DNA of 32,000 bases from assembly GCA_016700375.1 (NCBI GenBank), contig CP065016.1, positions 120,001 through 152,000 on the forward strand, given 5' to 3'. Under the pieces are notes generated by a model, which saw nothing but the letters and a program-made list of their open reading frames with translations, was not told the origin of the DNA and searched no databases. Made by a program: the position numbers and the translations under genes. Position 1 is the first letter of the stretch, and the number at the start of each line of letters is the position of its first letter. Shown one piece after another: positions 7,438 through 31,929 of the stretch. This DNA is from Candidatus Saccharimonadota bacterium (GTDB lineage: Bacteria > Patescibacteriota > Saccharimonadia > Saccharimonadales > UBA4665).

Positions 7438-7442
7438 TCGCT

Positions 7443-7595
7443 ATGCTCCAATTACCAATTACCAATTACCAATTACCAATGAATTATCAATTTTCAGTTA
7501 CCAATGAAGCTGCAAATGCCACATCGCTACAAGCTAATGTATTGAAAATTGAAAATTGTAAACTGCAAATTGCAGCGACTGAAAGGAGTGTCTAA
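7443..7595 (+). CDS. Spacer-spanning mini-ORF A (50 aa) in the rpoB-rpoC heptamer-repeat spacer
   Basis: The product is MLQLPITNYQLPMNYQFSVTNEAANATSLQANVLKIENCKLQIAATERSV*. This is the only stop-free frame of the spacer. The ATG lies 5 nt after the rpoB TAG, with the SD GGGGAGGAGG inside the rpoB 3' end. The stop TAA overlaps the rpoC ATG (TAATG, 7593-7597). Repeat units are (CCAATTA)x4 at 7448-7475 and an ATTGAAA-type array at 7541-7575. Confidence 0.5.
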   Translation: MLQLPITNYQLPMNYQFSVTNEAANATSLQANVLKIENCKLQIAATERSV

Positions 7596-10500
7596 TGCGA
7601 CGCTATTCATACGGCACGAATATTGCAGATTTTGACGCAGTGCGTCTTGCTGTTGCCAGCAGCAAAGATATAGAAGATTGGAGCTACGGCGAGGTCCTGA
7701 AACCAGAGACCATAAACTACCGAACTCAAAAACCGGAACGCGACGGGCTGTTTTGCGAGCGTATATTTGGCCCAGTAAAAGACATAAACCCGCACGACGC
7801 GAAATACAAGGGAGTTCGCTCTCGCGAAGCTGCCGTTGATAAAAACGGTGAACTTGTTACGAGGAGCATCGTGCGCCGTGAACGCATGGGTCATATTAAC
7901 CTGGCCGTGCCGGTGGCTCACATTTGGTTCTTGCGGGGAACCCCAAGTGCCATGGGGCTGTTGCTCGGCATGACAGTAAAGAGTCTCGAGCGTGTCGCAT
8001 ATTTTGCCGCCTATGTCGTAAAAAGCGTTAATGTTGCTGCTCGTGACCAATATCGAGCCGACCAAGAAGCGCAGTGGCAAGCCGGACAGCAGGCAATCAA
8101 ACTTCGCTACGAGAAAGAAGCAGAAACCGAAGGCGCCGACGTGAAGGCGCTTGCTGAAGCCCAGACCAAAGAACTCGAACAGTTTGACAAAGAATGGGAA
8201 CTGCTTCGCAACCAGCTCGACAGCTTAGTCGCATTCAGTCTTATGAATGAGGGCGACTACCGTGCGCTACCCCGTGAGCTACGCGATATGATTACCGTTG
8301 GTATGGGCGGCGCCGCGCTGCGCGAGCTGCTTGAAGGTATTGACCTCGTGAAGCTGATAGCCGATTTGACCACTGAAGCCGAAGAAGCCAAGGGTCAGCG
8401 CAAGAAGAAGCTAATGAAACGACTCCGTTTGCTCGAAAGCATGGAGCGAGCAGGCATAAAGCCAGAAAGCACCTGCCTGTCGGTTCTACCGGTGATACCT
8501 CCGGACCTTCGTCCAATGGTACAGCTCACGGGTGGACGGTTTGCCACCAGTGACCTCAACGATTTGTACCGCCGTGTCATCAACCGCAACAATCGTTTGA
8601 AGAAACTTATTGAGTTGAATGCCCCAGAGGTTATTCGTCGCAACGAACAGCGAATGCTACAGGAAGCGGTCGATGCGCTCATAGACAACAACAATGCTCG
8701 CAGTGGCCGTGCTGTAGCAGCGACTGGTCAACGCCGTCGACTGAAGAGCCTAAGCGATATGCTGAAAGGCAAGCAGGGTCGTTTCCGCCAGAACCTACTT
8801 GGTAAACGCGTAGACTACTCTGGTCGTTCGGTTATTGTTGCCGGTCCAGAGCTTAAAATCAACCAGTGTGGTCTGCCAAAGATGATGGCCCTTGAGCTTT
8901 TCAAGCCCTTTGTTATTGGCGAACTCATTTTCCGAGAACAGGCACATAACATCCGGAGCGCCACGCGCATGATAGAAACTGGCGAGACAGAAGTATGGGA
9001 CGCACTTGACGAAGTCATTACTGGCAAATACGTCTTGCTTAACCGTGCCCCGTCACTGCACCGTCTGAGCATTCAGGCTTTCCAACCGGTACTGATTGAG
9101 GGTCGTGCTATTCAGCTTCACCCGCTTGTATGTAAAGGGTTTAACGCAGACTTCGACGGTGACCAAATGGCTGTCCACTTGCCGTTATCCGATGCGGCAC
9201 AGGCAGAAGCGCGTGACATCATGTCGGCAAACCGTAACCTCCTGAAGCCTGCCGACGGTTCTCCTATTTTGCACATTGAGCAAGATATTGTCCTTGGGTG
9301 TTACTACCTCACCTATGAACGCCCAGGTAAAGAAGTAGCTCCACGAGCATTTTCGAGCCTCAACGAAGCCTCTATGGCATTTGACGCTGGAGTCATAAAG
9401 CTCCAAAGCCGTGTCCTTGTTTCGTTCCGGGGTGAGATGCGCGTGACGACCCTAGGGCGCCTGTCTTTCAACGAAATTTTCCCCGAAGACTTTGCATTCC
9501 AAGATGAAGCCATGACGAAAAAGCGTTTGCAAAAAGTTATGGGCGCGGTTTACGCGCAGTATGGCCAGGAAAAAACGGCAGAAATTGCCGACAACCTCAA
9601 AGACCTTGGCTTCCGCTACGCAACCATGTCTGGCCTAAGCATGGGCATGGACGACTTCGAACCAATTACCGGGCTCGAAGACGTTTTGAAAGAAGGCGAA
9701 ACAAAGAGCGCTGGCATTTCAACCCAGTACGACCAAGGCTTCATTACCGACGATGAGCGACATCGTCTCACCGTAGAAAACTGGACCAAGATTGACACAC
9801 GTGTGCAAAACATGTTGTCAGAGCAGATGAAAGATCAAGACGGTTCTATGGCTATTGCTATTACTTCTGGTGCGCGCGGTAACGTTTCTCAGATGAAAAT
9901 GTCAGTCGGTATGCTTGGCGTGTTCCAAGATGCGGCTGGTAACGTCATTGAGCTTCCCGTGAAAGCCGGGTACATACAAGGCCTAACGCCGCTTGAGTAC
10001 TTTACCGGTACGCGTGGTACCCGTAAGGCGGTTATTGACATTGCCCTCAAGACTGCCGACGCTGGTTACCTAACTCGTCGCCTTGTCGACGTGTCCCAAG
10101 ATGTCTTTACCATAGACGACGACAGCGATGATGCGTCCGACCCAGGGTTTGCCTTGCTTCGCGCCGACGCTGCTGCCATAGGTGTTACCTACGCCTCACG
10201 GCTCGAAGGCCGTTTTGCCGCCGAAGACCTCAAGGGCTATGTCAAGGCCGGAGAGTTGTTTACGAAAGAAGTTGCCGAAGCTATCGACGCCGATGAAAAA
10301 CTCGACGGCGTCAAAATACGAAGCGCGCTGAGTGCCACATCGGTTCATGGCGTTCCGCAAAAGAGCTACGGAGTTGACCCAGCGACGGGCCATTTGGTTA
10401 CCAGCCATAACCCAATAGGTGTTATTGCTGCCCAGAGTATTGGCGAGCCGGGTACGCAGCTAAGCCTCGACAGTAAGCACCGTTCTGGTGCCGTCGTGGC

Positions 10501-11452
10501 CGATGACACCGCTCAAGGCTTGAGTCGTGTTGAGGAGCTTTTTGAAGCTCGCTCACCGAAGGGTCAGGCATATTTGGCTGATATCAATGGTGTCGTAAAC
10601 GCATGGGAAGAGGGTGAGCGCTACATTGTGCAAGTCACCGCAAATGACCGCGAAGTACTGGAAATAGTACTTGAAGGTCGCACGGCCAAGATTGCGAGCG
10701 GTAGTGATGTCGCCATTGGTGATGTTCTCGCCAGCCGTGAAGATGGCGCTGAGCCGCTTGTGTCGCCTATGGCGGGCAAGGCTGAACTGACCGATAAATC
10801 AGTCATCATCACCCCGACCAGCAAGAGTGTTGTTCGCTACGAAATCCCAGGCTTTAAACAGCTGCTTGTCCAAGACGGTGATGTCGTGGTGGCAGGCCAG
10901 CGTCTGACCAACGGTTCCATCAACCTGCACGACCTCATGCGTCTGCAAGGTGTTGAGCCGACGCAGCGTTACATCATGAACGAAATCCTCGGTATCTTTG
11001 CTGGGCAGGGGCAGAACATTAGTGACAAGCATCTTGAAATCATTGTGCGTCAAATGTTCAGCCGCGTTCAAATAGAAGATGCCGGCGATAGCGAATTTGT
11101 AACTGGTGACGTTGTGAGTAAGCTTGCTGTTGCCGAAGCCAACGAAGCACTTGTTTCGGCCGGTAAACAGCCCGCCAAGGTTAACCAGCTACTGCTCGGT
11201 ATTACCAAAGCATCACTTTCAACCGATTCGTTCCTGAGTGCTGCCAGCTTCCAGGACACTACTCGCGTCCTCATTGGTGCTGCCACCAGCGGTCGTATCG
11301 ACAAGCTGTTTGGCCTTAAAGAGAACGTCATCTTGGGTCGCAAGATTCCAGTTGGCACTGGCTATGGTGCAAGCAACGCACTCGATGAAGGTGATGACGT
11401 AGAGTTGGTTGAAGAATATCACAACGACCAAATCTTCCGCAACGAAGGGTAG
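7595..11452 (+). CDS. rpoC: DNA-directed RNA polymerase subunit beta'
   Basis: It has the NADFDGD catalytic motif (..GFNADFDGDQMAVHLPLS..) and full-length homology. The SD GAAAGGAG lies 8 nt upstream. Confidence 0.97.
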   Translation: MRRYSYGTNIADFDAVRLAVASSKDIEDWSYGEVLKPETINYRTQKPERDGLFCERIFGPVKDINPHDAKYKGVRSREAAVDKNGELVTRSIVRRERMGHINLAVPVAHIWFLRGTPSAMGLLLGMTVKSLERVAYFAAYVVKSVNVAARDQYRADQEAQWQAGQQAIKLRYEKEAETEGADVKALAEAQTKELEQFDKEWELLRNQLDSLVAFSLMNEGDYRALPRELRDMITVGMGGAALRELLEGIDLVKLIADLTTEAEEAKGQRKKKLMKRLRLLESMERAGIKPESTCLSVLPVIPPDLRPMVQLTGGRFATSDLNDLYRRVINRNNRLKKLIELNAPEVIRRNEQRMLQEAVDALIDNNNARSGRAVAATGQRRRLKSLSDMLKGKQGRFRQNLLGKRVDYSGRSVIVAGPELKINQCGLPKMMALELFKPFVIGELIFREQAHNIRSATRMIETGETEVWDALDEVITGKYVLLNRAPSLHRLSIQAFQPVLIEGRAIQLHPLVCKGFNADFDGDQMAVHLPLSDAAQAEARDIMSANRNLLKPADGSPILHIEQDIVLGCYYLTYERPGKEVAPRAFSSLNEASMAFDAGVIKLQSRVLVSFRGEMRVTTLGRLSFNEIFPEDFAFQDEAMTKKRLQKVMGAVYAQYGQEKTAEIADNLKDLGFRYATMSGLSMGMDDFEPITGLEDVLKEGETKSAGISTQYDQGFITDDERHRLTVENWTKIDTRVQNMLSEQMKDQDGSMAIAITSGARGNVSQMKMSVGMLGVFQDAAGNVIELPVKAGYIQGLTPLEYFTGTRGTRKAVIDIALKTADAGYLTRRLVDVSQDVFTIDDDSDDASDPGFALLRADAAAIGVTYASRLEGRFAAEDLKGYVKAGELFTKEVAEAIDADEKLDGVKIRSALSATSVHGVPQKSYGVDPATGHLVTSHNPIGVIAAQSIGEPGTQLSLDSKHRSGAVVADDTAQGLSRVEELFEARSPKGQAYLADINGVVNAWEEGERYIVQVTANDREVLEIVLEGRTAKIASGSDVAIGDVLASREDGAEPLVSPMAGKAELTDKSVIITPTSKSVVRYEIPGFKQLLVQDGDVVVAGQRLTNGSINLHDLMRLQGVEPTQRYIMNEILGIFAGQGQNISDKHLEIIVRQMFSRVQIEDAGDSEFVTGDVVSKLAVAEANEALVSAGKQPAKVNQLLLGITKASLSTDSFLSAASFQDTTRVLIGAATSGRIDKLFGLKENVILGRKIPVGTGYGASNALDEGDDVELVEEYHNDQIFRNEG

Positions 11453-11474
11453 TTGGTAGAGCAAAGTAAGTAGG

Positions 11475-11517
11475 GCAGAGGGCAGAGTTCGCTCGTTCTA
11501 GGGCGCCTCTGCTTTTT
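11475..11517 (+). terminator. Putative intrinsic terminator after rpoC
   Basis: GCAGAGG (11475-11481) pairs with CCTCTGC (11506-11512), followed by TTTTT. The loop is long, so the fold is uncertain. Confidence 0.4.
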
Positions 11518-11686
11518 GCTATAACGAGTATGTTGGGTAAACATTAGCTCTCTTACGCTATTTCGATTCACTCTCTCATTAAATGAGGTGAAGTGCTATC
11601 TGGGAAATCGTTGTCCCAAGTGAAATACCCCAAGAAAAGACGGGACATTGTATTGTGGCCTAGGTGTATCTATGGTGAACGTCATT

Positions 11687-13207
11687 CTACAGAGTAAGAA
11701 GGTCGATACTTCTAATAGATATACCCCGTCGAGATGCATGGTCTACCGCGATATATCCAATTGCATTGCGTAAATCAGGCAATGCATGCGAGTATGCTTC
11801 TTTCCTACTGCCCGCCGATTGTAAGCCGTGTTTTCGTGCGTAACGTTTCATCTGTGCTGGCAGCATGGCAAAGCTGTCGATTTGATCTCTTTCCTGGGCA
11901 AGGACCAGGTGCAGCAACTCTGTCGGTAAAATGAGTATCTGAGCAAGGACTTTATAGTCTTCACTTCTCATGTTGCGTAGATTAAGTAGACCTGACGAAT
12001 GAAGACTTATTGTTTTAGCACGGACGTTTTCAGGCGCAAGACCGAGTGCGGTAGGCATGATATTTACAATCCTGACGGGGTCTAACCCCAAAGCAGCCAT
12101 AAAAGCCATACGAGCCTTGAGACTCTCTGGACTAATACTAAGTATGGAGGGGCTAGAGTTGATAAGAGTAGCAGGTTCAAACCCTAAATCTCGGATTGTT
12201 TGAAACTTTAACTTAACATGTTCGGTCGAGTTGCCTAAGCTACGCGGATTTACAGTAAAAATTCGCCTAGCGTTTAACCCCAAGGCTGTTGCATTATCAA
12301 ATTTTGCTTGTATATTCTCAATCGACATGCCAAGCACTGAGGGAAGAAAATTGATTGTCTTGACAGGGTTAATCCCCAGTGAGATCAAGGCATTATACAT
12401 TTCACTGATAGCCCTAACAGACCTGCCAATGACAATAGGGTCTTTATGTATAAGTTTTAATGCATCAAATCCTAAATTAGTTAGATTCTCTACTTTATAC
12501 TTAACAGTGTCTACAGATAGGCAAATCGCAGTCGGATAGGTATTAATAATTGCTACAGCGTTGATGCCAAGTGCTGTCATGCTTTCAACCTTTGTTCTTA
12601 TGTTTTCGGTTGAATACCCTAGGGCTGTCGGCACTTTGGCGATAACCGTATGTGCATCTAGGCCTAGGGCTGAGATATTATCAAATTTTTTTTGTATCTC
12701 TTCCGGCGCTAAACCAAGTACAATGGGGTATTTATGTATAATTTCTCGTTCATCCATACCAAGGGAATGCAGATTTTCAATTTTTATTCTGATGTTTTTG
12801 CCTGAAAAGCCAAGCGCTGAAGGAAGGCCTTGAACGATACTCGTTACATCAAGCCCCGCAGCCGTCATCTCACGTAAAGCTTCTATAGTGGTGCCTGAGG
12901 GGAAAAGGGTCGGATAGCGGTCGAGTATCTTTATGTATGTGCTGTGCATGGGGTGGTCAGAGCAACTCCAGCCAAGACTCTCACCAAAAAAAATGCGGCG
13001 CGCTTCGACGGTCTTAGCGATGAGCGTTGGTTGGCTATGTGGATTCATAACGCACGATGCCTCTATGATTAAGGGGTTTAGAGCAGTGATCTCCTCTTCT
13101 ATAATAGCCCTATTTGCAAGCGCGCTAAACCAGACCGCATCATCTGGATGCAGCTGAACCGCAATGTCGTCACATTGCTCAACTAGTCTAACATTCAGCT
13201 CAGACAT
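11687..13207 (-). CDS. mTERF-like repeat protein (about 10 tandem 32-aa repeats)
   Basis: The 506-aa ORF has regular repeats, for example IIHKYPIVLGLAPEEIQKKFDNISALGLDAHT and VIAKVPTALGYSTENIRTKVESMTALGINAVA. Their consensus is I-x3-P-x2-L-x2-S-x-E-x-I-x2-K-x3-L-x2-LG-x5, which matches the mTERF motif as I recall it. TATAAT (13218-13223, minus strand) lies 10 nt before the ATG. The gene is convergent with rpoC. Confidence 0.6.
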   Translation of the reverse strand: MSELNVRLVEQCDDIAVQLHPDDAVWFSALANRAIIEEEITALNPLIIEASCVMNPHSQPTLIAKTVEARRIFFGESLGWSCSDHPMHSTYIKILDRYPTLFPSGTTIEALREMTAAGLDVTSIVQGLPSALGFSGKNIRIKIENLHSLGMDEREIIHKYPIVLGLAPEEIQKKFDNISALGLDAHTVIAKVPTALGYSTENIRTKVESMTALGINAVAIINTYPTAICLSVDTVKYKVENLTNLGFDALKLIHKDPIVIGRSVRAISEMYNALISLGINPVKTINFLPSVLGMSIENIQAKFDNATALGLNARRIFTVNPRSLGNSTEHVKLKFQTIRDLGFEPATLINSSPSILSISPESLKARMAFMAALGLDPVRIVNIMPTALGLAPENVRAKTISLHSSGLLNLRNMRSEDYKVLAQILILPTELLHLVLAQERDQIDSFAMLPAQMKRYARKHGLQSAGSRKEAYSHALPDLRNAIGYIAVDHASRRGISIRSIDLLTL

Positions 13208-13328
13208 AACTAATTACATTATAAAACTTAATGGCGCCAGTAGCAATATTGTATAGGAAGAGTTTTATGGAGCTCTGGGGTATATGAACTCCACATTAGG
13301 TGGGGCATTCTTAGTAATTAACGCACCG

Positions 13329-14636: not shown

Positions 14637-14686
14637 GGAAACTCCTTAATAACCCAAGTGTAGCATAAAATCAGGGACAGTCGCAG

Positions 14687-15673: not shown

Positions 15674-15762
15674 ATTGCTCCTCCTATGCTGATTGTGCTA
15701 AGTATACACCTGTTTATGTGCCGTATAGAGTTGAACTACCCGATCCACACGAACTTTTTGGG

Positions 15763-15884
15763 TGTCATCTTGAGCACCGAAATGAATTCAGTGTAAACTC
15801 CGTCGAAAGATCTCATCGTATTTACACCTAACGGAATCCCTCCACGTAATTTACCCCGTACTTGATACGGGGGTCGGGATGACA
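15763..15884. repeat. Second palindromic GTCATC-type element (about 122 bp)
   Basis: It is bounded by TGTCATC (15763-15769) and GATGACA (15878-15884). Inside is the hairpin CCCCGTA-cttga-TACGGGG (15854-15872). It has the same length and end motif as the core of the 3514-3635 element. Confidence 0.35.
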
Positions 15885-16503: not shown

Positions 16504-16508
16504 TCGCT

Positions 16509-16658
16509 ATGCTCCAATTATCAATTAGCAATTTACAATTTTCAATGAATGATCAATTAGCAATTACCAATGAAAAGCAGAATCGCCAATCGCTAATCGC
16601 CATTCCATCGATAATCGATAATCGAAAATCGGTAATCACGACTGAAAGGAGCCTGTAG
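16509..16658 (+). CDS. Spacer-spanning mini-ORF B (49 aa) in the rpsL-rpsG heptamer-repeat spacer
   Basis: The product is MLQLSISNLQFSMNDQLAITNEKQNRQSLIAIPSIIDNRKSVITTERSL*. The first 20 nt after and including the upstream stop (TAGTCGCTATGCTCCAATTA) are identical to spacer A. The stop TAG overlaps the rpsG GTG (TAGTG, 16656-16660). Degenerate CAATTAN and AATCGNN 7-mers are present. Confidence 0.5.
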   Translation: MLQLSISNLQFSMNDQLAITNEKQNRQSLIAIPSIIDNRKSVITTERSL

Positions 16659-17137: not shown

Positions 17138-17144
17138 ACAGCAA

Positions 17145-17175
17145 AAGAGATAAGGAGTAAGAGATAAGAGTTAAG
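17145..17175 (+). repeat. Left arm of heptamer-repeat stem flanking the four-helix-bundle gene
   Basis: The units are AAGAGAT AAGGAGT AAGAGAT AAGAGTT AAG. Bases 17146-17168 are complementary to 17547-17569 at 21 of 23 positions, by hand alignment. Confidence 0.6.
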
Positions 17176-17177
17176 AA

Positions 17178-17543
17178 ATGGCTGTCAATAATTTCAAAGA
17201 CTTAATTGCTTGGCAAAAATCTCATCTCCTGGTGCTAGAAATATATACAATAACAAGCACTTTTCCAAAGTCGGAGCAATTTGGCTTAACGAATCAACTT
17301 CGTAGAGCAGCGGTCTCGATTGTGTCAAATATTGCCGAAGGTTTTGGCCGTCGGACTGTAGCAGATAGAACGCACTTTTACGATATGGCACGAGCATCAT
17401 TGCATGAAGTTCAAGCTCAGCTTATGGTTGCGCGTGATGTTGGCTTCATGCAAGACACTGTACATGAGAAAATCGATACATTCAGCATAGAATGCCATAA
17501 AATATTGACAGGCTTAATTAATAAAACAAATGGTACGAAATAA
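17178..17543 (+). CDS. Four-helix-bundle protein (23S rRNA intervening-sequence protein family)
   Basis: It has the characteristic sequence FKDLIAWQKSHLLVLEIY..FPKSEQFGLTNQLRRAAVSIVSNIAEGFGR. The length is 121 aa. Confidence 0.85.
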   Translation: MAVNNFKDLIAWQKSHLLVLEIYTITSTFPKSEQFGLTNQLRRAAVSIVSNIAEGFGRRTVADRTHFYDMARASLHEVQAQLMVARDVGFMQDTVHEKIDTFSIECHKILTGLINKTNGTK

Positions 17544-17546
17544 GAT

Positions 17547-17569
17547 CTTATCTCTTACCTCTTAACTCT
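17547..17569 (+). repeat. Right arm of heptamer-repeat stem flanking the four-helix-bundle gene
   Basis: The sequence is CTTATCTCTTACCTCTTAACTCT (7-nt periodic CTCTTAN units), the reverse complement of the left arm. It runs directly into the fusA SD (TAAGGAG). Confidence 0.6.
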
Positions 17570-17580
17570 AAGGAGTTTAT

Positions 17581-19686: not shown

Positions 19687-20103
19687 ATGAGTAAAAAACC
19701 GACTGATCTAGATGATGTGGTGAACGTTATCTCGGATTTGACCGAGTTGTTTTCGACGCGCTTCGATAAAATGGATCAGCGCTTCGACAAAATGGATGAA
19801 CGCTTCGACAAAATGGATCAGCGCTTCGACAAAATGGACGAGCGCTTCGACAAAATGGATGAACGCATCAACAGCATCGATATGCGCCTGTTTAGCGTTG
19901 AGCAGAAGCTACTGGAGCATGACGTACAATTCGCAAAAATCAATGAACGTATCGACCATCTCTACAGTGTGCTAGACAGTCACATGAAGCGGATTGAGGA
20001 TATCGTGGCTGACAATGTAGCCCGCGACGCGCAACAAGCGCGCATGGAAAAGTGGATTTTCCAAATTGCCGATAAACTTGACCTAAAACTGAATTACGAA
20101 TAG
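19687..20103 (+). CDS. Small coiled-coil protein with RFDKMD(Q/E) heptad repeats
   Basis: The 138-aa product has five perfect 7-aa repeats. Its C-terminus (ARMEKWIFQIADKLDLKLNYE) matches the paralogs at 3325 and 21630. Confidence 0.7.
   Translation: MSKKPTDLDDVVNVISDLTELFSTRFDKMDQRFDKMDERFDKMDQRFDKMDERFDKMDERINSIDMRLFSVEQKLLEHDVQFAKINERIDHLYSVLDSHMKRIEDIVADNVARDAQQARMEKWIFQIADKLDLKLNYE
19759..19863 (+). repeat. 21-bp tandem repeat x5 (coding)
   Basis: The unit is CGCTTCGA(T/C)AAAATGGA(T/C)(CAG/GAA/GAG), repeated head to tail. A sixth degenerate unit follows at 19864-19884. Confidence 0.9.
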
Positions 20104-22970: not shown

Positions 22971-22999
22971 TTGGCACAAATGCGCATACATGGTATGAT
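22971..22999 (+). promoter_or_regulatory. Putative rpsJ promoter
   Basis: TTGGCA (22971-22976), a 17-nt spacer, then TATGAT (22994-22999). It sits about 180 nt upstream of rpsJ. Confidence 0.5.
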
Positions 23000-23110
23000 T
23001 TAGCGGTAAACTAACAGCTTTGACTAAAAGCCGTGCGCGTTCCCAGGTGAATTCGTAAGGTGTTACAAGGCCAAACCGGGTGAAGCCGGCGGTTTGCAGC
23101 AAGGAATGTA

Positions 23111-23176
23111 GTGTGGATTTTCCTTACTACTCACACCTTACTACTTACTACTAACCTAAAATCCGGAGGATTTTAA
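23111..23176 (+). CDS. Possible mini-ORF J (21 aa) in the rpsJ leader
   Basis: From GTG the product is (M)[20 protein letters not shown], and the stop lies 2 nt before the rpsJ ATG. It is built on CTTACTA 7-mers like spacer H and its peptide resembles mini-ORF H (..TLTTYYLLLTT..). The weak start makes this tentative. Confidence 0.25.
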
Positions 23177-23178
23177 CC

Positions 23179-23511
23179 ATGGCAGAAGCCAAACAACCAG
23201 TACCGGGCAAGCAGCGAATTCGTATTCGCCTGAAGGCCTACGACCACAAAATCATTGACCAAGCCGCTAAGCAAATTGTAGATACGGCGCTTCGCACCGG
23301 CGCGAGCCTGGCTGGGCCAATCCCACTGCCAACGCGCAAGAGCACGTTTACAGTGGTAAAGAGCCCTCACGTGTACAAAAAAGGACGCGAACAGTTTGAA
23401 ATGCGTGTACATAAGCGCCTGATAGACGTCTTCGAACCGACCCCAAAGACTATCGATAGCCTCATGAACCTCTCTCTCCCCGCTGGCTGCGACGTCGAAA
23501 TCAAGATGTAA
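23179..23511 (+). CDS. rpsJ: 30S ribosomal protein S10
   Basis: The sequence is [60 protein letters not shown]. Confidence 0.96.
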
Positions 23512-23520
23512 CTTATTGGT

Positions 23521-24363: not shown

Positions 24364-24422
24364 AGTATATAGTATATCATAAAATATAGACAAAGTAAAT
24401 AATATGTGCTATAATAGGAAGC
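24364..24422. promoter_or_regulatory. AT-rich divergent promoter region for two leaderless genes
   Basis: On the + strand, TGcTATAAT (24407-24415) ends 7 nt before ATG 24423. On the - strand, TATACT (24371-24376) lies 7 nt before ATG 24363. Confidence 0.55.
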
Positions 24423-26024: not shown

Positions 26025-26280
26025 AGGTTTACCAAAAATCACTCGTAGTATTATGTGCAACGGGTTGACAGGGGTTTGGGTTTTGTGATACCCTGTTGGG
26101 TACATACAAACATTTCCGCATGGTGATGTGAGGTAGGCCCCGCCAGAGGCGAGGAACCCCCGACCGCCATTTTCTTAATGTCACTGTACAAGACATTAAC
26201 CGCGGATGGGTGAGTATCAATATCAATAACTCTTATAAAAAAGGAGCGTGTGGGTTCATGTGAACCTACGCAACATAACT

Positions 26281-26901
26281 ATGAAGGCACTCATAACGAG
26301 AAAGGTTGGCATGACCAGTACCATCGCTGAAGATGGTACGACTCAGGCTGTAACCCTGCTTTCCGCTAGTCCCTGTGTGATTACACAGGTGAAAACCGAT
26401 GAAACAGACGGGTATACCGCTGTACAAATCGGCTGCGAGGAAGTCAAAGAACACAAAGTAGCAAAACCACAGGCCGGTCATCTCAAGCCAGCCAAACAAA
26501 TTGTGCGTATTATGCGCGAGTTCCGTGTAGCGGAAGTCACCGAAGACCTCAAAGTTGGAGAAACACTCAACGCCGAGGTCTTTTCAGTTGGTGACACGGT
26601 GCATGTAACTGGCACGAGCAAGGGTAAGGGTTGGGCTGGTACTATTCGCCGCCACAACTTCCACCGCGGCCGCAAGACGCATGGTGGCCGTAGCTACCGC
26701 CGCGTTGGTTCTATAGGTTCTATGTACCCTCAACACATTTTGCCCGGCAAAAAGATGGCCGGACACCTCGGTCACGACCAAGTCACTGTACGCAATCTCA
26801 AAATTGCACTTGTCGACGCTGAAAAGGGGTATATCGGTGTTGTGGGAGCTGTACCTGGTCCGCGCAAAGGTATTGTTATAATTCGCGGAGACGAATTATG
26901 A
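26281..26901 (+). CDS. rplC: 50S ribosomal protein L3
   Basis: MKALITRKVGMTSTIAEDGTTQAVTLL.. gives the canonical L3 N-terminus from ATG 26281. In-frame GTGs at 26248 and 26260 lie nearer the SD AAGGAG (26241-26246) and are alternatives. Confidence 0.9.
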   Translation: MKALITRKVGMTSTIAEDGTTQAVTLLSASPCVITQVKTDETDGYTAVQIGCEEVKEHKVAKPQAGHLKPAKQIVRIMREFRVAEVTEDLKVGETLNAEVFSVGDTVHVTGTSKGKGWAGTIRRHNFHRGRKTHGGRSYRRVGSIGSMYPQHILPGKKMAGHLGHDQVTVRNLKIALVDAEKGYIGVVGAVPGPRKGIVIIRGDEL

Positions 26902-27041
26902 AAATGAATAGATTACCCATTACCCTGTCACCTGTCACCTTGGATTATCCTGTAGCCTGTCACCATGGTTATACGTCACAGGTTACACCTACGTCACACG
27001 TCACACGTGACACGCTAATCAGCGATGAAAGGAGCTTCTAA
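26898..27041 (+). CDS. Spacer-spanning mini-ORF C (47 aa) in the rplC-rplD spacer
   Basis: The product is [47 protein letters not shown]. The start overlaps the rplC stop (ATGA, 26898-26901) and the stop overlaps the rplD ATG (TAATG, 27039-27043). The 7-mers are ATTACCCx2, TGTCACCx2, GTCACACx2 and GTGACAC. Confidence 0.5.
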   Translation: MKMNRLPITLSPVTLDYPVACHHGYTSQVTPTSHVTRDTLISDERSF

Positions 27042-27700
27042 TGGCCGTACCAACCTATACTGGTGCTGGCGTAAAAGCCACAACTCCCGCAAAACTCAGT
27101 AAAGAAATCTTTGCAGTGGAAGTAAAAAACCACCAATTACTGAAGCAAGCGTATGAGGCATATCTCGCAAATGGCCGAGACAACCTAGCCGTCACGAAAA
27201 CTCGGGGACTCGTGAGTGGTGGTGGTCGCAAGCCATGGAAACAGAAGGGTACCGGCCGAGCTCGTTTTGGTAGCTCTCGCAACCCAATTTGGCGCGGCGG
27301 TGGCATTGTCTTTGGCCCTACTGGCGAAGAAAACTATACCAAGAAAATTTCTACGACCAGCAAGCGCGTTGCACTGCGGCAGGCCTTAAGCCTTGCAAAT
27401 GCTGGCGGGAAGCTCATTGTTCTTGAAAAGCTTGCCAGCCGTGAAGGCAAAACAGCCGAAATGGCGAAATTACTCACAAAAGTCGGTGTTACTAGAAGCG
27501 CACTCGTTGTTGTTGCTAGTAAGAATGCCGAGCTCGTGAACGCTACCGCGAACTTACAGAATGTCATGCTGGTAAGCGCAAAGTACCTCAATGTGTTCGA
27601 CATTATGAATGCCGACCATATCGTTATGACGAGCGACGCCCTCAAGGTCGTCGAAGAATGGCTGAAGCCAGTTGCTAAGACCGCGAAGGAGGCCAAATAA
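27041..27700 (+). CDS. rplD: 50S ribosomal protein L4
   Basis: The sequence is GGGRKPWKQKGTGRARFGSSRNPIWRGGGIVFGP. Confidence 0.96.
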   Translation: MAVPTYTGAGVKATTPAKLSKEIFAVEVKNHQLLKQAYEAYLANGRDNLAVTKTRGLVSGGGRKPWKQKGTGRARFGSSRNPIWRGGGIVFGPTGEENYTKKISTTSKRVALRQALSLANAGGKLIVLEKLASREGKTAEMAKLLTKVGVTRSALVVVASKNAELVNATANLQNVMLVSAKYLNVFDIMNADHIVMTSDALKVVEEWLKPVAKTAKEAK

Positions 27701-28113
27701 TGCACGTTTTAAAACCACGTTTGAGTGAAAAGGCATTTGGTCTTAGCCAGACAACGAACACGTTTGCTATTGATGTTCCAAGCGAGCTCAACAAGTACGA
27801 AGTTGCCGCTGTTGTTAAGAAGCAATTTGATGTAGAGATTAAGTCTGTTCGACTGGTGAACCGCAAGGGTAAAGTCAAGCGTGTTATGAACACGACTGGC
27901 AAGCGTAGTAGTAACCGAAAGGGTGTTCAGGGCGATGTAAAGAAGGCGTATGTCACGCTCAAAGCGGGCAGTCACCTGCCATTCTTTGCCGCTGCCGAAG
28001 AAGAAATTGCGAAGGCTGCAGCCGATAAAGCCAAAGCCGCTAAAAAAGACGCTGCTCCTGCTAAGAAAGCCGGCGGCCTTAAGAAGCTTGTCGGCAAGAA
28101 GGAGGCAAAGTAA
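27700..28113 (+). CDS. rplW: 50S ribosomal protein L23 (with Lys/Ala-rich C-terminal tail)
   Basis: It has an L23 core (KPRLSEKA..NKYEVAAVVKKQFDVEIKSVRLVN). The start overlaps the rplD stop (TAATG). Confidence 0.93.
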   Translation: MHVLKPRLSEKAFGLSQTTNTFAIDVPSELNKYEVAAVVKKQFDVEIKSVRLVNRKGKVKRVMNTTGKRSSNRKGVQGDVKKAYVTLKAGSHLPFFAAAEEEIAKAAADKAKAAKKDAAPAKKAGGLKKLVGKKEAK

Positions 28114-28114
28114 T

Positions 28115-28228
28115 ATGAATCATGAATCACGAATCATGAATCTAGCATGGGAAGTTATCGGCCGCAAGGCGGCAGGCATGATTCATACTACATACTTCAT
28201 GCTTCCGCGACTGAAAGGAGCTGCATAA
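28115..28228 (+). CDS. Spacer-spanning mini-ORF D (37 aa) in the rplW-rplB spacer
   Basis: The product is MNHESRIMNLAWEVIGRKAAGMIHTTYFMLPRLKGAA*. The ATG lies 1 nt after the rplW TAA, with AAGGAGG in the rplW 3' end. The stop overlaps the rplB ATG (TAATG, 28226-28230). It is a paralog of mini-ORF E. Confidence 0.55.
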   Translation: MNHESRIMNLAWEVIGRKAAGMIHTTYFMLPRLKGAA

Positions 28229-29058
28229 TGGCAATTAAACAATACAATCCGACGACGCCTGGTCGTCGCGGTATGTCTAGCCAAGACTTTGACGCGGTGA
28301 CTACACGTAAGCCACTTCGCTCACTGGTTGTTACCAAGCGCCGAGGCAATGGCCGCAATAACCAAGGTCGCATAACGACTCGTCATCAGGGCGGCGGCGC
28401 ACGCAAGCACTATCGCTTGGTAAACTTTGACTTCAAGGGTGAAGGTGTTGTTGAGCACATAGAGTACGACCCAAACCGGAGCGCACGAATTGCACGTATT
28501 AAAGACGCCAAAGGTGCATACCACTATGTACTCGCTGCGAGCGGTATGAAGCAAGGCCAGAAACTGAGCGCCGATGCCGAAGCAGCTATAGAAATGGGCA
28601 ATCGGTTGCCGCTAGCAAACATTCCGGTTGGTACCACAATTCATGCTTTAGAAATGAAGCCAGGGCGCGGCGCACAAGCAGTTCGCAGTGCTGGCAACAG
28701 CGCTATGCTCATGGCCAAAGAAGGCGATTATGCACAGGTTCGTATGCCAAGTGGTGAGGTTCGCAAGTTCCTCCTCGTATGTACTGCCAGCATTGGTGTG
28801 GTCGGTAACGAACAACACCAGAATGTAAAAATCGGCAAAGCTGGCCGTAGTCGTCACCTTGGCAAGCGCCCAAGTGTCCGTGGCGTTGTGATGAACGCTG
28901 TTGACCACCCGCACGGTGGTGGTGACGGTGGTCGTCACCGTATGGCGAAGGCGCCTCGTACGCCATGGGGTCAAAAGACACTTGGCTACAAAACTCGCCG
29001 CCGTAAAGATACTAGCAATATGATCGTAAGAAGCCGCCACGCGGCCAAGAGGAAATAA
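28228..29058 (+). CDS. rplB: 50S ribosomal protein L2
   Basis: MAIKQYNPTTPGRRGMS.. gives the canonical N-terminus at 28228. The motif ..VMNAVDHPHGGGDG.. is present. Confidence 0.96.
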   Translation: MAIKQYNPTTPGRRGMSSQDFDAVTTRKPLRSLVVTKRRGNGRNNQGRITTRHQGGGARKHYRLVNFDFKGEGVVEHIEYDPNRSARIARIKDAKGAYHYVLAASGMKQGQKLSADAEAAIEMGNRLPLANIPVGTTIHALEMKPGRGAQAVRSAGNSAMLMAKEGDYAQVRMPSGEVRKFLLVCTASIGVVGNEQHQNVKIGKAGRSRHLGKRPSVRGVVMNAVDHPHGGGDGGRHRMAKAPRTPWGQKTLGYKTRRRKDTSNMIVRSRHAAKRK

Positions 29059-29061
29059 GCG

Positions 29062-29406
29062 ATGGCAAGTCCTAACCCCAATAAAACATGTGGAACCTGT
29101 GCTCTCGGCGAACCACAAATCGATACTTTTTTCACATGCGGCAATTACAAACGTGTTCCACAATTTGATTCAACGGACGCTATAAATTGTAACGTTGACA
29201 ACACAAACATCATTAGTTTGGGATGGAGTGTCCCTGGTCTAGAAGGGGTATGGCTAGATAGATACCCAAAGAACGCTAGCTGCGGACCATGCGCTGGTCT
29301 ACTAGCCGCGACGCGCTCTCAGGTTGTATGTCACTTAACAAACATTGCTCTTCGGAAAGAGAACAGTGACTGGTGCGGTCAATGGCAGCCAGAAGGGAGT
29401 TTTTAA
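29062..29406 (+). CDS. Cys-rich 114-aa protein inserted between rplB and rpsS
   Basis: The ATG lies 3 nt after the rplB stop, and the stop TAA abuts the rpsS ATG. There are 8 Cys in two similar modules (C10-x2-C13-x12-C26-x16-C43 and C74-x2-C77-x12-C90-x14-C105). The 3' end carries the rpsS SD (GAAGGGAG). Confidence 0.6.
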   Translation: MASPNPNKTCGTCALGEPQIDTFFTCGNYKRVPQFDSTDAINCNVDNTNIISLGWSVPGLEGVWLDRYPKNASCGPCAGLLAATRSQVVCHLTNIALRKENSDWCGQWQPEGSF

Positions 29407-29679
29407 ATGAGTCGTTCATTAAAGAAGGGGCCGTTTATCGATCCGAAGCTCGCGAAAAAAGTCGTGGCGCTTGGCCCAGAGGATCGCACCATTATCAAAA
29501 CATGGGCCCGTGCTAGCACAATTGCCCCAGAGTTTGTTGGTAAAACATTTGCCGTACACAATGGCAAAGTCCACGTACCGGTTTTTGTTACCGAAAATAT
29601 GGTTGGCCACAAGCTCGGTGAATTTAGCCCAACGAGAAAGTTTAGGTCTCATGGCGGAAAGCTAGCCAAAGGTAAATAG
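29407..29679 (+). CDS. rpsS: 30S ribosomal protein S19
   Basis: The sequence is [39 protein letters not shown]. Confidence 0.96.
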
Positions 29680-29680
29680 G

Positions 29681-29797
29681 ATGAATAAAGAATCAAGAAT
29701 CATGAATCATGTTAAGGAAATTATCAGCAGCGAAGCTGCTGGCATGATTCATACTTCATACTTCATGATTCAGAAGCCGGAGGATATATGTCTGTAA
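29681..29797 (+). CDS. Spacer-spanning mini-ORF E (38 aa) in the rpsS-rplV spacer
   Basis: The product is MNKESRIMNHVKEIISSEAAGMIHTSYFMIQKPEDICL*. The ATG lies 1 nt after the rpsS TAG. The stop at 29795-29797 lies 7 nt past the rplV ATG at 29788. Confidence 0.5.
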   Translation: MNKESRIMNHVKEIISSEAAGMIHTSYFMIQKPEDICL

Positions 29798-30168
29798 AAG
29801 CAGAATCTAAAGGCGTACGCTTGAGCCCTCGTAAGGTTGCCGCTGTTGCGACGCTTGTACGAGGTCGCACTGTAGCCGATGCTATTGTCATTCTTGAACA
29901 TACACCCCGCCGGGCAGCTCTTTCTGTGCTTAAGACAATCAAGAGTGCTCAAGCAAATGCCGCCCACAACCACAACTACAAAGCCGATACCCTAGTCATT
30001 ACTGAAATTACGGTCAATCATGGCCCACGTATGAAACGATTTCGACCTGCTGCCATGGGGCGCGCGCTGCCATACATGAAGCGGAGCAGCCACATACGAG
30101 TTCTCGTCGATGGTGAACAACGTCCAACCAAAGCTGTTAAACCTGTAGCGAAGGAGACTAAGTCATGA
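29788..30168 (+). CDS. rplV: 50S ribosomal protein L22
   Basis: The sequence is RLSPRKVAAVATLVRGRTVADAIVILEHTPRRAA..ANAAHNH.. Confidence 0.95.
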   Translation: MSVKAESKGVRLSPRKVAAVATLVRGRTVADAIVILEHTPRRAALSVLKTIKSAQANAAHNHNYKADTLVITEITVNHGPRMKRFRPAAMGRALPYMKRSSHIRVLVDGEQRPTKAVKPVAKETKS

Positions 30169-30305
30169 AAATCCTAAGCACTAAGCACGAAATTCTAAAC
30201 AAATTCAAATATTCTAATGTTTCAAATTTTCAAATTTTGGAACTTGTTCATTGTTTAGCATTTAGAAATTCGAATTTTGGATTTACTCCAGAAAGGAGTG
30301 CATGA
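30165..30305 (+). CDS. Spacer-spanning mini-ORF F (46 aa) in the rplV-rpsC spacer
   Basis: The product is MKILSTKHEILNKFKYSNVSNFQILELVHCLAFRNSNFGFTPERSA*. The start overlaps the rplV stop (ATGA, 30165-30168). The stop overlaps the rpsC ATG (TGATG, 30303-30307). Confidence 0.5.
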   Translation: MKILSTKHEILNKFKYSNVSNFQILELVHCLAFRNSNFGFTPERSA

Positions 30306-30934
30306 TGGGTCAGAAAGTTAACCCCATTAGCATGCGCCTGCAAGCCAATAAAGATTGGCGGAGCAAATGGTTTGTCGGCAAACGACAATACGCCGATTAT
30401 CTTGCCCAGGATCTGCAGGTCCGCAAGCTCATTCAGGATAAGTTTGGCTCACGCGGTGCTATTAATAAAGTCGACATAGAGCGTTCGCCTAACCTCGTTA
30501 CCGTTACAATCGCCACAGCAAAAGCTGGCGTGGTCATTGGTCGTGGTGGTCAAGGCGCCCAAGAACTGAAGGCCGCCATAGAAAAGGTATATGGCGTACC
30601 GGCACGTGTAAATATTGAGGAAGTAAAAAAACCTGACCTGTACGCGAAGCTAGTTGCCGAGAACATTGCACATCAGCTAGAGCGACGTATGAGCTTCCGC
30701 CGCGCTATTAAAAGCGCGAGTGCCGCCAGTATGCGTGCCGGAGCAAAAGGTGTCCGAATAGAAGTTGCCGGCCGCCTGAACGGTGCTGAAATGAGCCGCC
30801 GCGAAAAAGAAGCTGTTGGTTCAGTGCCACTACATACCATCCGTGCAGATATTGACTTTGCCTCTGCCCGAGCAAACTGGCCCGGCGCAGGCATTATTGG
30901 TATCAAAGTTTGGATATACAAGGGGGACAAATAA
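30305..30934 (+). CDS. rpsC: 30S ribosomal protein S3
   Basis: MGQKVNPISMRL.. gives the canonical N-terminus from ATG 30305. The ATG at 30302 would add one Met. Confidence 0.95.
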   Translation: MGQKVNPISMRLQANKDWRSKWFVGKRQYADYLAQDLQVRKLIQDKFGSRGAINKVDIERSPNLVTVTIATAKAGVVIGRGGQGAQELKAAIEKVYGVPARVNIEEVKKPDLYAKLVAENIAHQLERRMSFRRAIKSASAASMRAGAKGVRIEVAGRLNGAEMSRREKEAVGSVPLHTIRADIDFASARANWPGAGIIGIKVWIYKGDK

Positions 30935-30935
30935 A

Positions 30936-31082
30936 ATGATTTCATCATTTCAATTATCCTTTGGCCTGTCACCTGTCACATTGGATTATCCTGTCGCAAT
31001 TACCAATTGTTACATGTCACATGTCACGCCAATGTCACAGGTTACAGGTGACATGTTAATCGCGACTGAAAGGAGCTTTTAA
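30936..31082 (+). CDS. Spacer-spanning mini-ORF G (48 aa) in the rpsC-rplP spacer
   Basis: The product is [48 protein letters not shown]. The ATG lies 1 nt after the rpsC TAA, and the stop overlaps the rplP ATG (TAATG, 31080-31084). It is a paralog of mini-ORF C. Arms 30965-30984 and 31029-31048 are complementary at 18 of 20 positions. Confidence 0.55.
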
Positions 31083-31495
31083 TGTTGCTCCCAAAAAGAA
31101 CTAAATTCCGCAAAGTCCGCAAGGGCAAGATTCGCGGTGTTGCCACAGCTGGCAATTACATTGCCTACGGCGAATACGCTTTGCAAGCACAAGGTCACGA
31201 ACGTATAACGAGCCGACAAATTGAGGCCAGCCGTCAGGCGATGACAAGGTACATTAAGCGCGGTGGAAAAATCTGGATTCGCATTTTCCCGCATACGCCC
31301 GTTACCCGCAAGCCACTGGACGTCAAAATGGGTAGTGGCAAGGGTTCGCCTGAGTTTTTTGTTGCCAAAGTTCGCCCGGGCACCATTATGTTTGAAATGC
31401 AGGGTGTCAGTGAGGAAACTGCAAGAGAAGCTATGCGCCTCGCTGGTCACAAGCTGCCAGTCAAGACAAAATTTGTCGTGAAGGAGGGCGTGTAA
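31082..31495 (+). CDS. rplP: 50S ribosomal protein L16
   Basis: The sequence is [44 protein letters not shown]. Confidence 0.96.
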
Positions 31496-31608
31496 TGAGG
31501 TATAAGCATTCAGCGGAAAGGGGTAAGGGGTTTTCGTCTAGAACCCTTACTACTTACTACTTACTACTTACTACTTCTGAAGTGATGCCCGAAGGGAGGA
31601 ACGTATGA
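31495..31608 (+). CDS. Spacer-spanning mini-ORF H (37 aa) in the rplP-rpmC spacer
   Basis: The product is [37 protein letters not shown]. The start overlaps the rplP stop (TAATG, 31493-31497), and the stop overlaps the rpmC ATG (ATGA, 31605-31608). A (CTTACTA)n array runs about 31546-31576. The hairpin is GTAAGGGGTT..GAACCCTTAC. Confidence 0.5.
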   Translation: MRYKHSAERGKGFSSRTLTTYYLLLTTSEVMPEGRNV

Positions 31609-31805
31609 AAATAGCCGATATTCGTAAGCTTACTACGGCAGAATTGACCAAAGAAACAGTAAAGCTAAAAGATGAAATTGCCGAACTGCGTCGTCATATA
31701 TACATGGGTGATAACCAAAACGTACGAGATGTACGTAACAAGCGCAAAGACCTTGCTCGTATGCTCACCGTTTTAAGCGAAAATTTAGTTAAGGAGACGA
31801 AATAA
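31605..31805 (+). CDS. rpmC: 50S ribosomal protein L29
   Basis: The sequence MKIADIRKLTTAELTKETVKLKDEIAELR.. is L29-like in length and position. Confidence 0.9.
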   Translation: MKIADIRKLTTAELTKETVKLKDEIAELRRHIYMGDNQNVRDVRNKRKDLARMLTVLSENLVKETK

Positions 31806-31927
31806 TGGAAAATCCAAATTCCAAATTCCAAACTCCAAACAAATTCCAGCACTCAAATTCCAACGAAGCTCATTTGGAACTTGGAACTTGGAACTTGGAG
31901 CTTACAGCTCCTGAAAGGAGTCTGTAG
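31805..31927 (+). CDS. Spacer-spanning mini-ORF I (40 aa) in the rpmC-rpsQ spacer
   Basis: The product is MENPNSKFQTPNKFQHSNSNEAHLELGTWNLELTAPERSL*. The start overlaps the rpmC stop (TAATG, 31803-31807). The stop TAG lies 2 nt before the rpsQ ATG. The CCAAATT-type array faces a complementary GAACTTG x3 array. Confidence 0.5.
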   Translation: MENPNSKFQTPNKFQHSNSNEAHLELGTWNLELTAPERSL

Positions 31928-31929
31928 TT

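Follow-up and report, generated by a model that had tools for sequence, protein, structure and literature searches.

A 32,000-nt stretch of the genome of a Candidatus Saccharimonadota bacterium (contig CP065016.1, positions 120,001 to 152,000; hereafter the window) raises the question of what has been placed between the genes of its translation-apparatus operons, and why it carries open reading frames (ORFs). Nine junctions which in most Saccharibacteria, and in strains 92–98% identical in the flanks, have gaps of −4 to +11 nt are occupied here by spacers, designated A to I, each crossed by a short ORF that connects the upstream gene to the downstream one. A first-pass annotation, made from the sequence alone, had described these spacers and proposed that they hold translated bridge ORFs. 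The spacers are probably mobile palindromic cassettes with a selected relay ORF that would pass ribosomes across the insert and preserve the coupling of the operon.

All nine spacers are present where the first-pass annotation had placed them; in order, they measure 157, 154, 139, 114, 108, 136, 147, 109 and 124 nt. The spacers, their relay ORFs (with any Shine–Dalgarno (SD) features) and a related element in the rpsJ leader are as follows.

7438–7594, plus strand: spacer A, rpoB–rpoC; arms CCAATTA (4.7 copies) and ATTGAAA (4.6 copies)
7443–7595, plus strand: relay ORF of A, 50 aa; 3′ module GCGACTGAAAGGAG, then TAATG
16504–16657, plus strand: spacer B, rpsL–rpsG; same family as A
16509–16658, plus strand: relay ORF of B, 49 aa; ends at TAGTG; SD predicted to pair with codons 2–3 (CUCC)
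26902–27040, plus strand: spacer C, rplC–rplD; CCTGTCA/ACGTCAC family
26898–27041, plus strand: relay ORF of C, 47 aa; starts in an ATGA overlap, ends at TAATG
28114–28227, plus strand: spacer D, rplW–rplB; ATGAATC/TTCATAC family, GC stem with short apical loop
28115–28228, plus strand: relay ORF of D, 37 aa
29680–29787, plus strand: spacer E, rpsS–rplV; same family as D
29681–29797, plus strand: relay ORF of E, 38 aa; ends 10 nt inside rplV
30169–30304, plus strand: spacer F, rplV–rpsC; CTAAGCA...GGATTTAC family, conserved inverted termini of ~45 nt and a variable centre
30165–30305, plus strand: relay ORF of F, 46 aa
30935–31081, plus strand: spacer G, rpsC–rplP; same family as C
30936–31082, plus strand: relay ORF of G, 48 aa
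31496–31604, plus strand: spacer H, rplP–rpmC; CTTACTA array (4.4 copies) facing a GGGGTAAGGGG arm
31495–31608, plus strand: relay ORF of H, 37 aa
31806–31929, plus strand: spacer I, rpmC–rpsQ; arms AAATTCC and TTGGAAC
31805–31927, plus strand: relay ORF of I, 40 aa; SD within a local CUCC-UGAAA-GGAG hairpin
23101–23178, plus strand: heptamer (CTTACTA) element of the rpsJ 5′ leader; lacks an upstream gene for coupling, each of the three frames interrupted by stops

Tandem Repeats Finder detects period-7 arrays of 2–8.6 copies in all nine spacers and in the rpsJ leader stretch. Period 7 accounts for 23 of the 36 rows returned for the window, and nearly all 23 fall in the spacers (units CCAATTA, ATTGAAA, ATCGATA, CCTGTCA, ACGTCAC, ATGAATC, CTAAGCA, CTTACTA, AAATTCC and TTGGAAC). 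The first-pass annotation had each spacer built of such units throughout; in fact only the arms consist of arrays, and neither the loop nor the terminal modules bearing the ATG and the SD are repetitive.

Exactly one ORF per spacer links both neighbours (9/9), as had been claimed. Relative to the last base of the upstream stop, it begins anywhere from 3 nt ahead to 6 nt beyond; six spacers have its own stop overlapping the downstream start, and in the other three it is no more than 10 nt away. The start and stop arrangements first described (ATGA, TAATG, TAGTG, TGATG and gaps of 1–5 nt) are correct; of the two ORFs then said merely to end within 10 nt of the next start, that of spacer E is corrected here to one overlapping rplV by 10 nt. 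The other two forward frames hold 2–5 stops each in eight spacers, only spacer I having 0 and 1, and the reverse complement has stops in all three frames of every spacer. When spacer interiors were shuffled with the ATG and the 3′ end kept, a linking ORF arose in 3–16% of trials per spacer (product ~1e-10), and a (2/3)^T frame-assignment test over the nine spacers gives 7e-10; both products assume independence, and the spacers represent about six families, so that the effective number of independent cases is smaller. The earlier judgement that the linking frames are unlikely by chance agrees with these values.

The most direct sign of selection on the frame lies within the arrays. Because 7 is not a multiple of 3, the heptamer copies step through successive phases. 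Five arrays have a TGA or TAA in their consensus heptamer. In every one of them the +1 and +2 copies keep that triplet, and it is precisely the in-frame copy that has lost it to a substitution (TGT at 7557, AAA at 16626, CGA at 28130, AGA at 29696 and GAA at 30189). Several other window heptamers are stop-free in every phase, which would suit an origin of the spacers by local replication slippage, with long simple-sequence repeats (SSRs) arising independently at each junction and the frames open merely through heptamer composition. Among the long SSRs of many prokaryotes, heptanucleotides are also the commonest class, for which a proposed cause is polymerase slippage (Mrazek 2007, cited through PMC4679880). 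Slippage nevertheless seems very doubtful here: the arms are complementary and not simply tandem, the non-repetitive termini and loops are common to different junctions and species, and the stop-containing heptamers are mutated in the ORF phase only, with stops abounding in the other frames and on the reverse strand. Chance or faulty assembly is more improbable still. Repeats do break short-read assemblies, and the rpsL–rpsG spacer of one related locus (L040; L numbers denote loci outside the window) contains a run of N, but the same spacers were recovered in independent assemblies from several samples and assemblers, the spacer A locus also from another sample (L086), and the shuffle statistics exclude chance.

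An RplC scan of species-representative genomes yielded 80 Saccharibacteria loci, to which RplD relatives added close strains, for about 100 loci in total. Ribosomal genes were placed by tblastn and junction lengths tabulated, gene boundaries in the relatives being set by a simple tblastn-plus-extension rule. Among 1,305 coupled-type junctions, 1,129 are no longer than 20 nt, typically −1 or −4 (TAATG or ATGA), and 163 measure 50–400 nt. A doubly coupled ORF crosses 121 of the 134 distinct expanded spacers at coupled-type junctions, compared with 4.5 expected from shuffles; for spacers of heptamer type (strong 7-nt periodicity) the figure is 54/59, with 2.0 expected. The first-pass annotation had suggested looking in homologous spacers for loss of the frame as a refutation of its idea, and the idea withstands this check; all five heptamer-type exceptions are at rpsH–rplF, which is not natively overlapped. 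Stops across the 54 linking heptamer elements number 190 in the +1 frame, 145 in the +2 frame and 2 in the ORF frame, these being terminal stops caught by the counting range. Start offsets in the 54 run from −3 to +7; 37 of the stops overlap the downstream start, the rest being no more than 9 nt from it. These elements and the nine window spacers are all located between co-directional operon genes and have their frame open on the sense strand only.

Frame maintenance depends on context, namely on whether the junction is natively coupled.

Junctions natively overlapped or within about 9 nt (native −4 to +9 nt): essentially all expanded spacers have a linking ORF
rpsH–rplF (native median 14 nt): linking ORF in 7/14 expanded spacers, in 2/7 of heptamer type
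fusA–tuf, tuf–rpsJ and rpsJ–rplC (not coupled): linking ORF in 0/24

The rpsJ leader element, which lies downstream of a promoter-like site (22971–22999), serves as an internal control for the frame, and the rpsJ-leader heptamer palindromes of L040 and L041 likewise have no open frame. As the leader copies have stops in all frames, the heptamer hairpin itself needs no frame; the frame is kept where ribosomes would be handed on.

The spacers are dispersed among junctions. Clustering separates distinct families, and every copy in the four listed below has a linking ORF.

Family 1, CAATTAC/AATCGC type: 18 distinct copies, 12 junction types, 7 loci; spacers A and B
Family 2, CCTGTCAC/GTCACAC type: 9 copies, 5 junction types, 5 loci; spacers C and G
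Family 3, ATGAATC or GAGACAA type: 9 copies, 6 junction types, 5 loci; spacers D and E
Family 4, CTAAGCA...GGATTTAC type: 6 copies, 4 junction types, 3 loci; spacer F

Non-repetitive termini and loops are common to copies at different junctions and in different species. The first-pass annotation had overlooked that the spacers are dispersed families that replace one another and carry built-in ATG, SD and stop modules.

Spacers are also gained and lost between close strains: strains with flanking genes 92–98% identical at the nucleotide level differ both in the presence of spacers and in the family occupying a given junction. One close relative (L099) has the window's spacers and more at nearly every junction down to rplO, including a sister copy of spacer I at rpsQ–rplN. 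Another (L093) has none at five consecutive junctions and is empty at rpsS–rplV, the site of spacer E. The spacer C site, rplC–rplD, is empty in L087 and in L091–L098 and holds a different family in L004 and L076; L087, empty there, has a 258-nt ORF at rplD–rplW. Empty sites are likewise found at rplW–rplB (spacer D) in L004, L076 and L087, at rpsC–rplP (spacer G; TAAATG) in L004 and L076, and at rplP–rpmC (spacer H) in L087 and L076. The more distant outgroup L076 is empty at rplW–rplB, rpsC–rplP, rplP–rpmC and rpmC–rpsQ, all of them filled in the window, so that the window insertions are derived. Within the window the rplD/rplW junction, an uninterrupted TAATG on the plus strand (27698–27702), had been read as the ancestral state, and the short gaps of most Saccharibacteria and of the close strains bear this out. 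Comparison of filled and empty pairs indicates that the inserted segment itself supplies the ATG, the SD and the stop; at times, as at rplC, the insert also alters the final codons of the gene before it, so creating ATGA.

Between the window and L099 the spacers are 95.4–100% identical with no indels and their flanking genes 89–98%, which points to recent spread or to constraint at the nucleotide level. Constraint would be expected if the spacers were RNA elements of benefit to the host, hairpins that tune mRNA stability, processing (e.g. by RNase III, as with rRNA intervening sequences) or the relative translation of ribosomal proteins, with the ORF serving only to prevent polarity. Such a role would also suit their concentration in highly expressed operons, the RNA-like apical GC stems with GNRA/UUCG-like loops in family 3, and the anti-SD/SD pairing predicted in spacers B, F and I. 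The turnover described above makes it unlikely: none of the elements is conserved from species to species at any one junction, L093 lacks any at its five consecutive junctions, and other close strains carry a different family. Nor do the predicted folds favour it. Sense-strand minimum-free-energy z-scores (dinucleotide shuffles) range from −0.1 to −2.8, mostly −1 to −2, spacer I standing apart at −4.9. In 41/54 elements the more stable fold is that of the antisense strand (Wilcoxon p = 6e-5); the mismatches on the mRNA strand are thus A·C rather than G·U. This bias fits a palindromic symmetry that is a DNA-level or ancestral property, the sense strand being shaped to stay stop-free and translatable, and fits less well with selected mRNA structure; the first-pass description of the inserts as structured RNA is accordingly weakened. 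An Rfam search at the gathering threshold over the window and five related loci gave nothing credible. No intrinsic-terminator-like site was found on the plus strand inside any spacer, and the few promoter-like matches in the spacers are all on the minus strand and within chance expectation.

The translation signals of the mini-ORFs are well formed. The core of the downstream SD lies inside the mini-ORF, 3–10 nt (mode 6–7) before the next start, in 54/54 heptamer elements; the mini-ORF start is ATG in 52/54, the second codon AAA in 16/54, and an upstream SD is present in 37/54. Predictions pair the downstream SD of spacers B, F and I (P > 0.9) with a CUCC inside the mini-ORF. An SD masked by pairing inside the preceding ORF is a classical arrangement, in which the translating ribosome unmasks the next start.

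Good starts and upstream SDs would equally serve a family of functional micro-peptides encoded between the ribosomal-protein genes, an alternative raised in the first-pass annotation. Some of the mini-ORFs are picked up by gene callers, and within a family the peptides resemble each other. This resemblance tracks that of the nucleotide repeats, however, the peptides being low-complexity read-outs of heptamers; copies of the same kind of element in the rpsJ leader and at rpsH–rplF have no ORF; and a homology search with the peptide of spacer G returned only two database proteins, small ORFs being too rarely called for such a search. The 16 substitutions between the window and L099 divide into ~10 non-synonymous and ~5 synonymous (counted by hand from the alignments), and a single junction is held by unrelated families in different close strains, so that the peptides differ there. 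On these two grounds a conserved micro-peptide function was rejected, and a functional family of such peptides is highly improbable.

For the cassette with a relay ORF we propose the following course of events. Several related families of small (about 60–190 nt) palindromic insertion elements, with arms of imperfect, mutually complementary tandem heptamers, would repeatedly colonise stop/start junctions of the translation-apparatus operons of Saccharibacteria. Each copy brings an ATG (often ATGAAA) on the upstream stop or 1–6 nt after it, served by what was formerly the SD of the downstream gene; a single stop-free frame running through both arms; and a 3′ module with a new SD (typically GCGACTGAAAGGAGC) 6–7 nt before the downstream start and a stop overlapping that start. 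A ribosome terminating on the first gene would re-initiate on the mini-ORF, melt the hairpin and, in several copies, the anti-SD/SD pairing as it translates, terminate on the start of the second gene and re-initiate there, so relaying coupling across the insert. The peptide would be a by-product, and only variants that keep the relay would persist where coupling matters. We infer both the termination–reinitiation mechanism and the manner in which the elements move.

Selection on the linking frame upholds the first-pass suggestion of a bridge ORF in part. Several points weigh against the proposal. That the mini-ORFs are translated, and that they couple their neighbours, is deduced from sequence. 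The close conservation of the spacers between the window and L099, greater than that of their flanks, could reflect nucleotide constraint and hence a host function rather than a neutral passenger. No consistent target-site duplication emerged, filled/empty pairs leaving 3–4-nt ambiguities (TAAT, AATG or none), and gene and domain scans of the window found no transposase; what is described here as mobility could be an exchange between junctions by recombination or gene conversion. Almost all sightings of the elements come from translation-apparatus operons, on which the survey of ~1.3 Mb was centred, and the looser intergenic regions of the window are free of them; random insertion followed by a selective filter does not predict such a restriction, which hints at targeting or function. 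A pattern scan of metagenomes for the termini of family 1 (TCGCTATGCT...CGACTGAAAGGAG) matched only the same rpoB–rpoC locus, with two chance matches besides, and is uninformative on other contexts.

The sole longer relative of the spacers that was found carries a gene for a four-helix bundle, not a transposase.

17138–17580, plus strand: candidate full-length relative of the spacers, rpsG–fusA; four-helix-bundle gene (TIGR02436/PF05635) at 17178–17543

The gene is nested between complementary heptamer arms (AAGAGAT type at 17145–17176, TCTTAAC type at 17546–17569), and an SD, CTCTAAGGAG, follows the 3′ arm before fusA. Its orthologue in L087 has different heptamers, again complementary, and complementary arms likewise surround the PF05635 gene in L105, L107 and L111/L112. 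Overall, such arms are counted around the gene in six Saccharibacteria lineages. A paralogue in L114 (2001–2434) shows the same style of insertion outside the ribosomal operons: it lies between atpG and atpD and, since its start is fused with the atpG stop in an ATGA, has a heptamer arm on the 3′ side alone, with an SD before atpD. The family-3 mini element is colinear, in both arms and in its 3′ SD module, with the gene flanks in L107 and L111 (18–19 of 19–21 positions on the 5′ side; 41/53 on the 3′ side in L111, including AGCGAC-AAAAGGAGC), so that the mini element resembles a gene-carrying form in which a short capped stem has taken the place of the gene.

A tblastn search against plasmids returned 32 records, nearly all of them cyanobacterial (chiefly Nostocales) or from Riemerella. 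In 7/8 inspected plasmid homologues the PF05635 gene has period-7 arrays next to it, on both sides in four, complementary in ~4 and direct in one. The three 20–40-kb regions checked contain only 4–8 period-7 arrays each, two of which flank the PF05635 gene within 45 nt. Heptamer arrays thus stand beside PF05635/TIGR02436 genes in three phyla (L105–L117; cyanobacterial and Riemerella plasmids L118–L128), often complementary on the two sides. On plasmids of Anabaena sp. 90 and Pseudanabaena the gene is located between cas6 and cas4, and in Pseudanabaena the flanking arrays are direct (AGCTAAA and AGCCAAA, 10 copies each). PF05635 goes by the name '23S rRNA intervening-sequence protein' and is classed as Avd-like (PMC10053308). 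The link between gene and repeat is an association, not a mechanism. Tentatively, the heptamer palindromes may be the cis-acting ends of an unrecognised and widespread class of insertion element, the full-length members of which carry a PF05635 gene and of which the Saccharibacteria spacers are miniature derivatives specialised on coupled junctions. Were this so, the association would explain at least part of the heptamer arrays in cyanobacteria and Bacteroidota that resemble short tandemly repeated repetitive (STRR) sequences, and the PF05635 protein would be a candidate binder or mobiliser of heptamer arrays. In the literature covered, which is incomplete, no paper was found that describes elements of this kind from Saccharibacteria or connects PF05635 genes to heptamers.

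Elements of comparable behaviour are known. Mycobacterial interspersed repetitive units (MIRUs) are 40–100-bp units found in direct tandem arrays in Mycobacterium and are not heptamer palindromes. They are described as seemingly mobile intergenic repeats within operons, oriented with transcription, whose internal ORF is coupled by overlap to a flanking gene, which is thought to allow insertion with minimal effect on expression (PMC12548453, citing Supply 1997). The spacers share with MIRUs their position between co-transcribed genes, their orientation and an ORF with ends abutting or overlapping both neighbours. By description, rather than by sequence comparison, they differ in their 7-nt unit, in having one palindromic cassette per junction and in their Saccharibacteria host. 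They differ further in that several coexisting families saturate the ribosomal-protein operons of a 1.26-Mb genome of the candidate phyla radiation (CPR), at least one of them colinear with the flanks of a protein-coding relative. The principle of a mobile repeat with a coupled ORF is therefore already known from MIRUs, and the first-pass statement that nothing of the kind had been described was wrong in principle; new are the heptamer-palindrome architecture, the host, the density with which junctions are filled and the gene-carrying relative.

STRR sequences are heptanucleotide repeats with a cyanobacterial host and canonical consensus units. TAACTGA heptanucleotide repeats occur in Beggiatoaceae, Cyanobacteria and Bacteroidetes and are intergenic inside operons, including ribosomal-protein operons (PMC4679880). 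Like STRR sequences, long SSRs and TAACTGA repeats, the spacers have tandem 7-nt units, lie between genes in operons and are sporadically distributed across the phylogeny; heptamers resembling cyanobacterial ones are found in related loci (e.g. a TTGGTCA-like unit in L009). TAACTGA contains two stop triplets and forms direct arrays just upstream of starts, for which coupled ORFs are not described (PMC4679880), whereas the arms of the spacers are complementary and crossed by a selected frame. From STRR sequences the spacers differ in host and in having units other than the canonical consensus.

With transposable elements of the miniature inverted-repeat type (MITEs), repetitive extragenic palindromes (REPs) and Rickettsia palindromic elements (RPEs), the spacers have in common small size, inverted repeats, many dispersed copies in the range 50–500 bp and no capacity to encode a transposase. 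RPEs, too, survive by staying in frame. The spacers, unlike these three, insert between genes with their own start, SD and stop and not in frame within a gene, and their arms are heptamer-periodic. Filled and empty junctions compared allow a target-site duplication of TAAT, of AATG or none at all, and scans of the window revealed no transposase as a partner. The intervening sequence (IVS) of 23S rRNA with a PF05635 ORF is similar in having an extended stem in a highly expressed transcript with an Avd-like gene (PMC10053308) in the loop, as at 17138–17580 and in five further Saccharibacteria lineages. The IVS is located in rRNA and excised by RNase III, whereas the host transcript here is an mRNA operon, and the nine mini-ORF spacers have no PF05635 gene. 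In bicistronic designs and natural upstream-ORF 'ribosome delivery' couplers, a short ORF with its own ribosome-binding site holds the downstream SD and stops on the next start, making initiation insensitive to local structure (PMC12548453). The mini-ORFs also carry the SD of the next gene (54/54) and end at its start; unlike designed couplers they are natural, and they are coupled upstream as well, repeated at about 20 consecutive junctions and borne on repeats.

Other occupants of the same junctions were observed. A second element of ~100–115 nt, not built of heptamers, has the form GGGAAAAGAGCAGCC...CGCGATGAGAAAAACCG-loop-AGGTTTGTCTCAT (e.g. L087:14854–14967; also in L009, L012, L020, L021, L029, L030, L052, L055, L056 and L062). 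Its 15 distinct copies, at eight ribosomal-protein junction types in 11 loci, all have a doubly coupled ORF. RNAalifold predicts 22 pairs, seven with compensatory double changes, and an invariant 12-bp stem; an Rfam search at E ≤ 1 gave nothing credible. The copies in L020 and L029 are flanked by junction duplications of 16–21 nt, long duplications being seen for this second element only. A third element, of 61 nt (TGCAAGGCCAA...GCATGCCACTGGCATGCTCCGGAG), occurs twice in one genome, at rplC–rplD and rplW–rplB of L021.

The rplB–rpsS junction (window 29062–29406, L099:12034–12360, L087:12190–12564; also in L076 and L004) is hypervariable among close strains, holding unrelated ORFs of 108–124 aa without a Pfam match, a heptamer element, or nothing (TAA-GCG-ATG). 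The former GCGATG is where every occupant begins, and each finishes with a new SD adjoining rpsS. Similar unrelated cargo ORFs are found at rplD–rplW and rplE–rpsN, and Pfam and NCBIfam gave no family for those at any of the three junctions.

The gene order of the window, from the ORF listing and NCBIfam/Pfam scans, begins with trigger factor, clpP and an EamA transporter, followed by rpoB and rpoC. Downstream of rpoC, on the minus strand, are an mTERF-domain protein, a nucleotide-sugar dehydrogenase and an unknown gene. The next block comprises rpsL, rpsG, the four-helix-bundle gene, fusA, a coiled-coil ORF and tuf, after which come three small genes, rpsJ and an unknown 533-aa gene; the window ends with rplC-rplD-rplW-rplB, a 114-aa ORF and rpsS-rplV-rpsC-rplP-rpmC-rpsQ. 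The mTERF-repeat protein (506 aa; 11687–13207, minus strand; Pfam PF02536, E 2e-25) is convergent with rpoC and belongs to a mainly organellar family of nucleic-acid-binding helical repeats; it was considered as a conceivable binder of the heptamer repeats. The coiled-coil-like ORF inserted between fusA and tuf (19687–20103, 138 aa) contains a 21-nt (3 × 7) tandem repeat of 4.9 copies with 90% match (19758–19860) that encodes an RFDKMDQ-type heptad. Upstream of the rpsJ-leader heptamer element, conserved sequence blocks (window 22990–23060, L040:7760–7840, L041:7330–7400), for example GTGGTGA(T/C)TAAAAGTCG and, in L040 and L041, GATGTTACACCAC, may be part of the leader or promoter region of the S10 operon.

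More than 100 independent insertions in ribosomal-protein operons survive almost only if they can relay ribosomes from stop to start, a property that is lost where the native junction is uncoupled. As comparative evidence for intense selection on coupling in these operons, this is strong. Mini-ORFs of this kind will confuse gene callers and small-protein surveys, and the repeats fragment short-read assemblies of such organisms. The link between heptamers and PF05635 offers a handle on the nature of bacterial heptanucleotide repeats and on the role of Avd-like or '23S IVS' proteins outside diversity-generating retroelements (DGRs). The organism itself, with its ultra-small CPR genome, puts up with kilobases of repeat DNA in the operons that are expressed most highly: to be streamlined is not to be free of selfish repeats.

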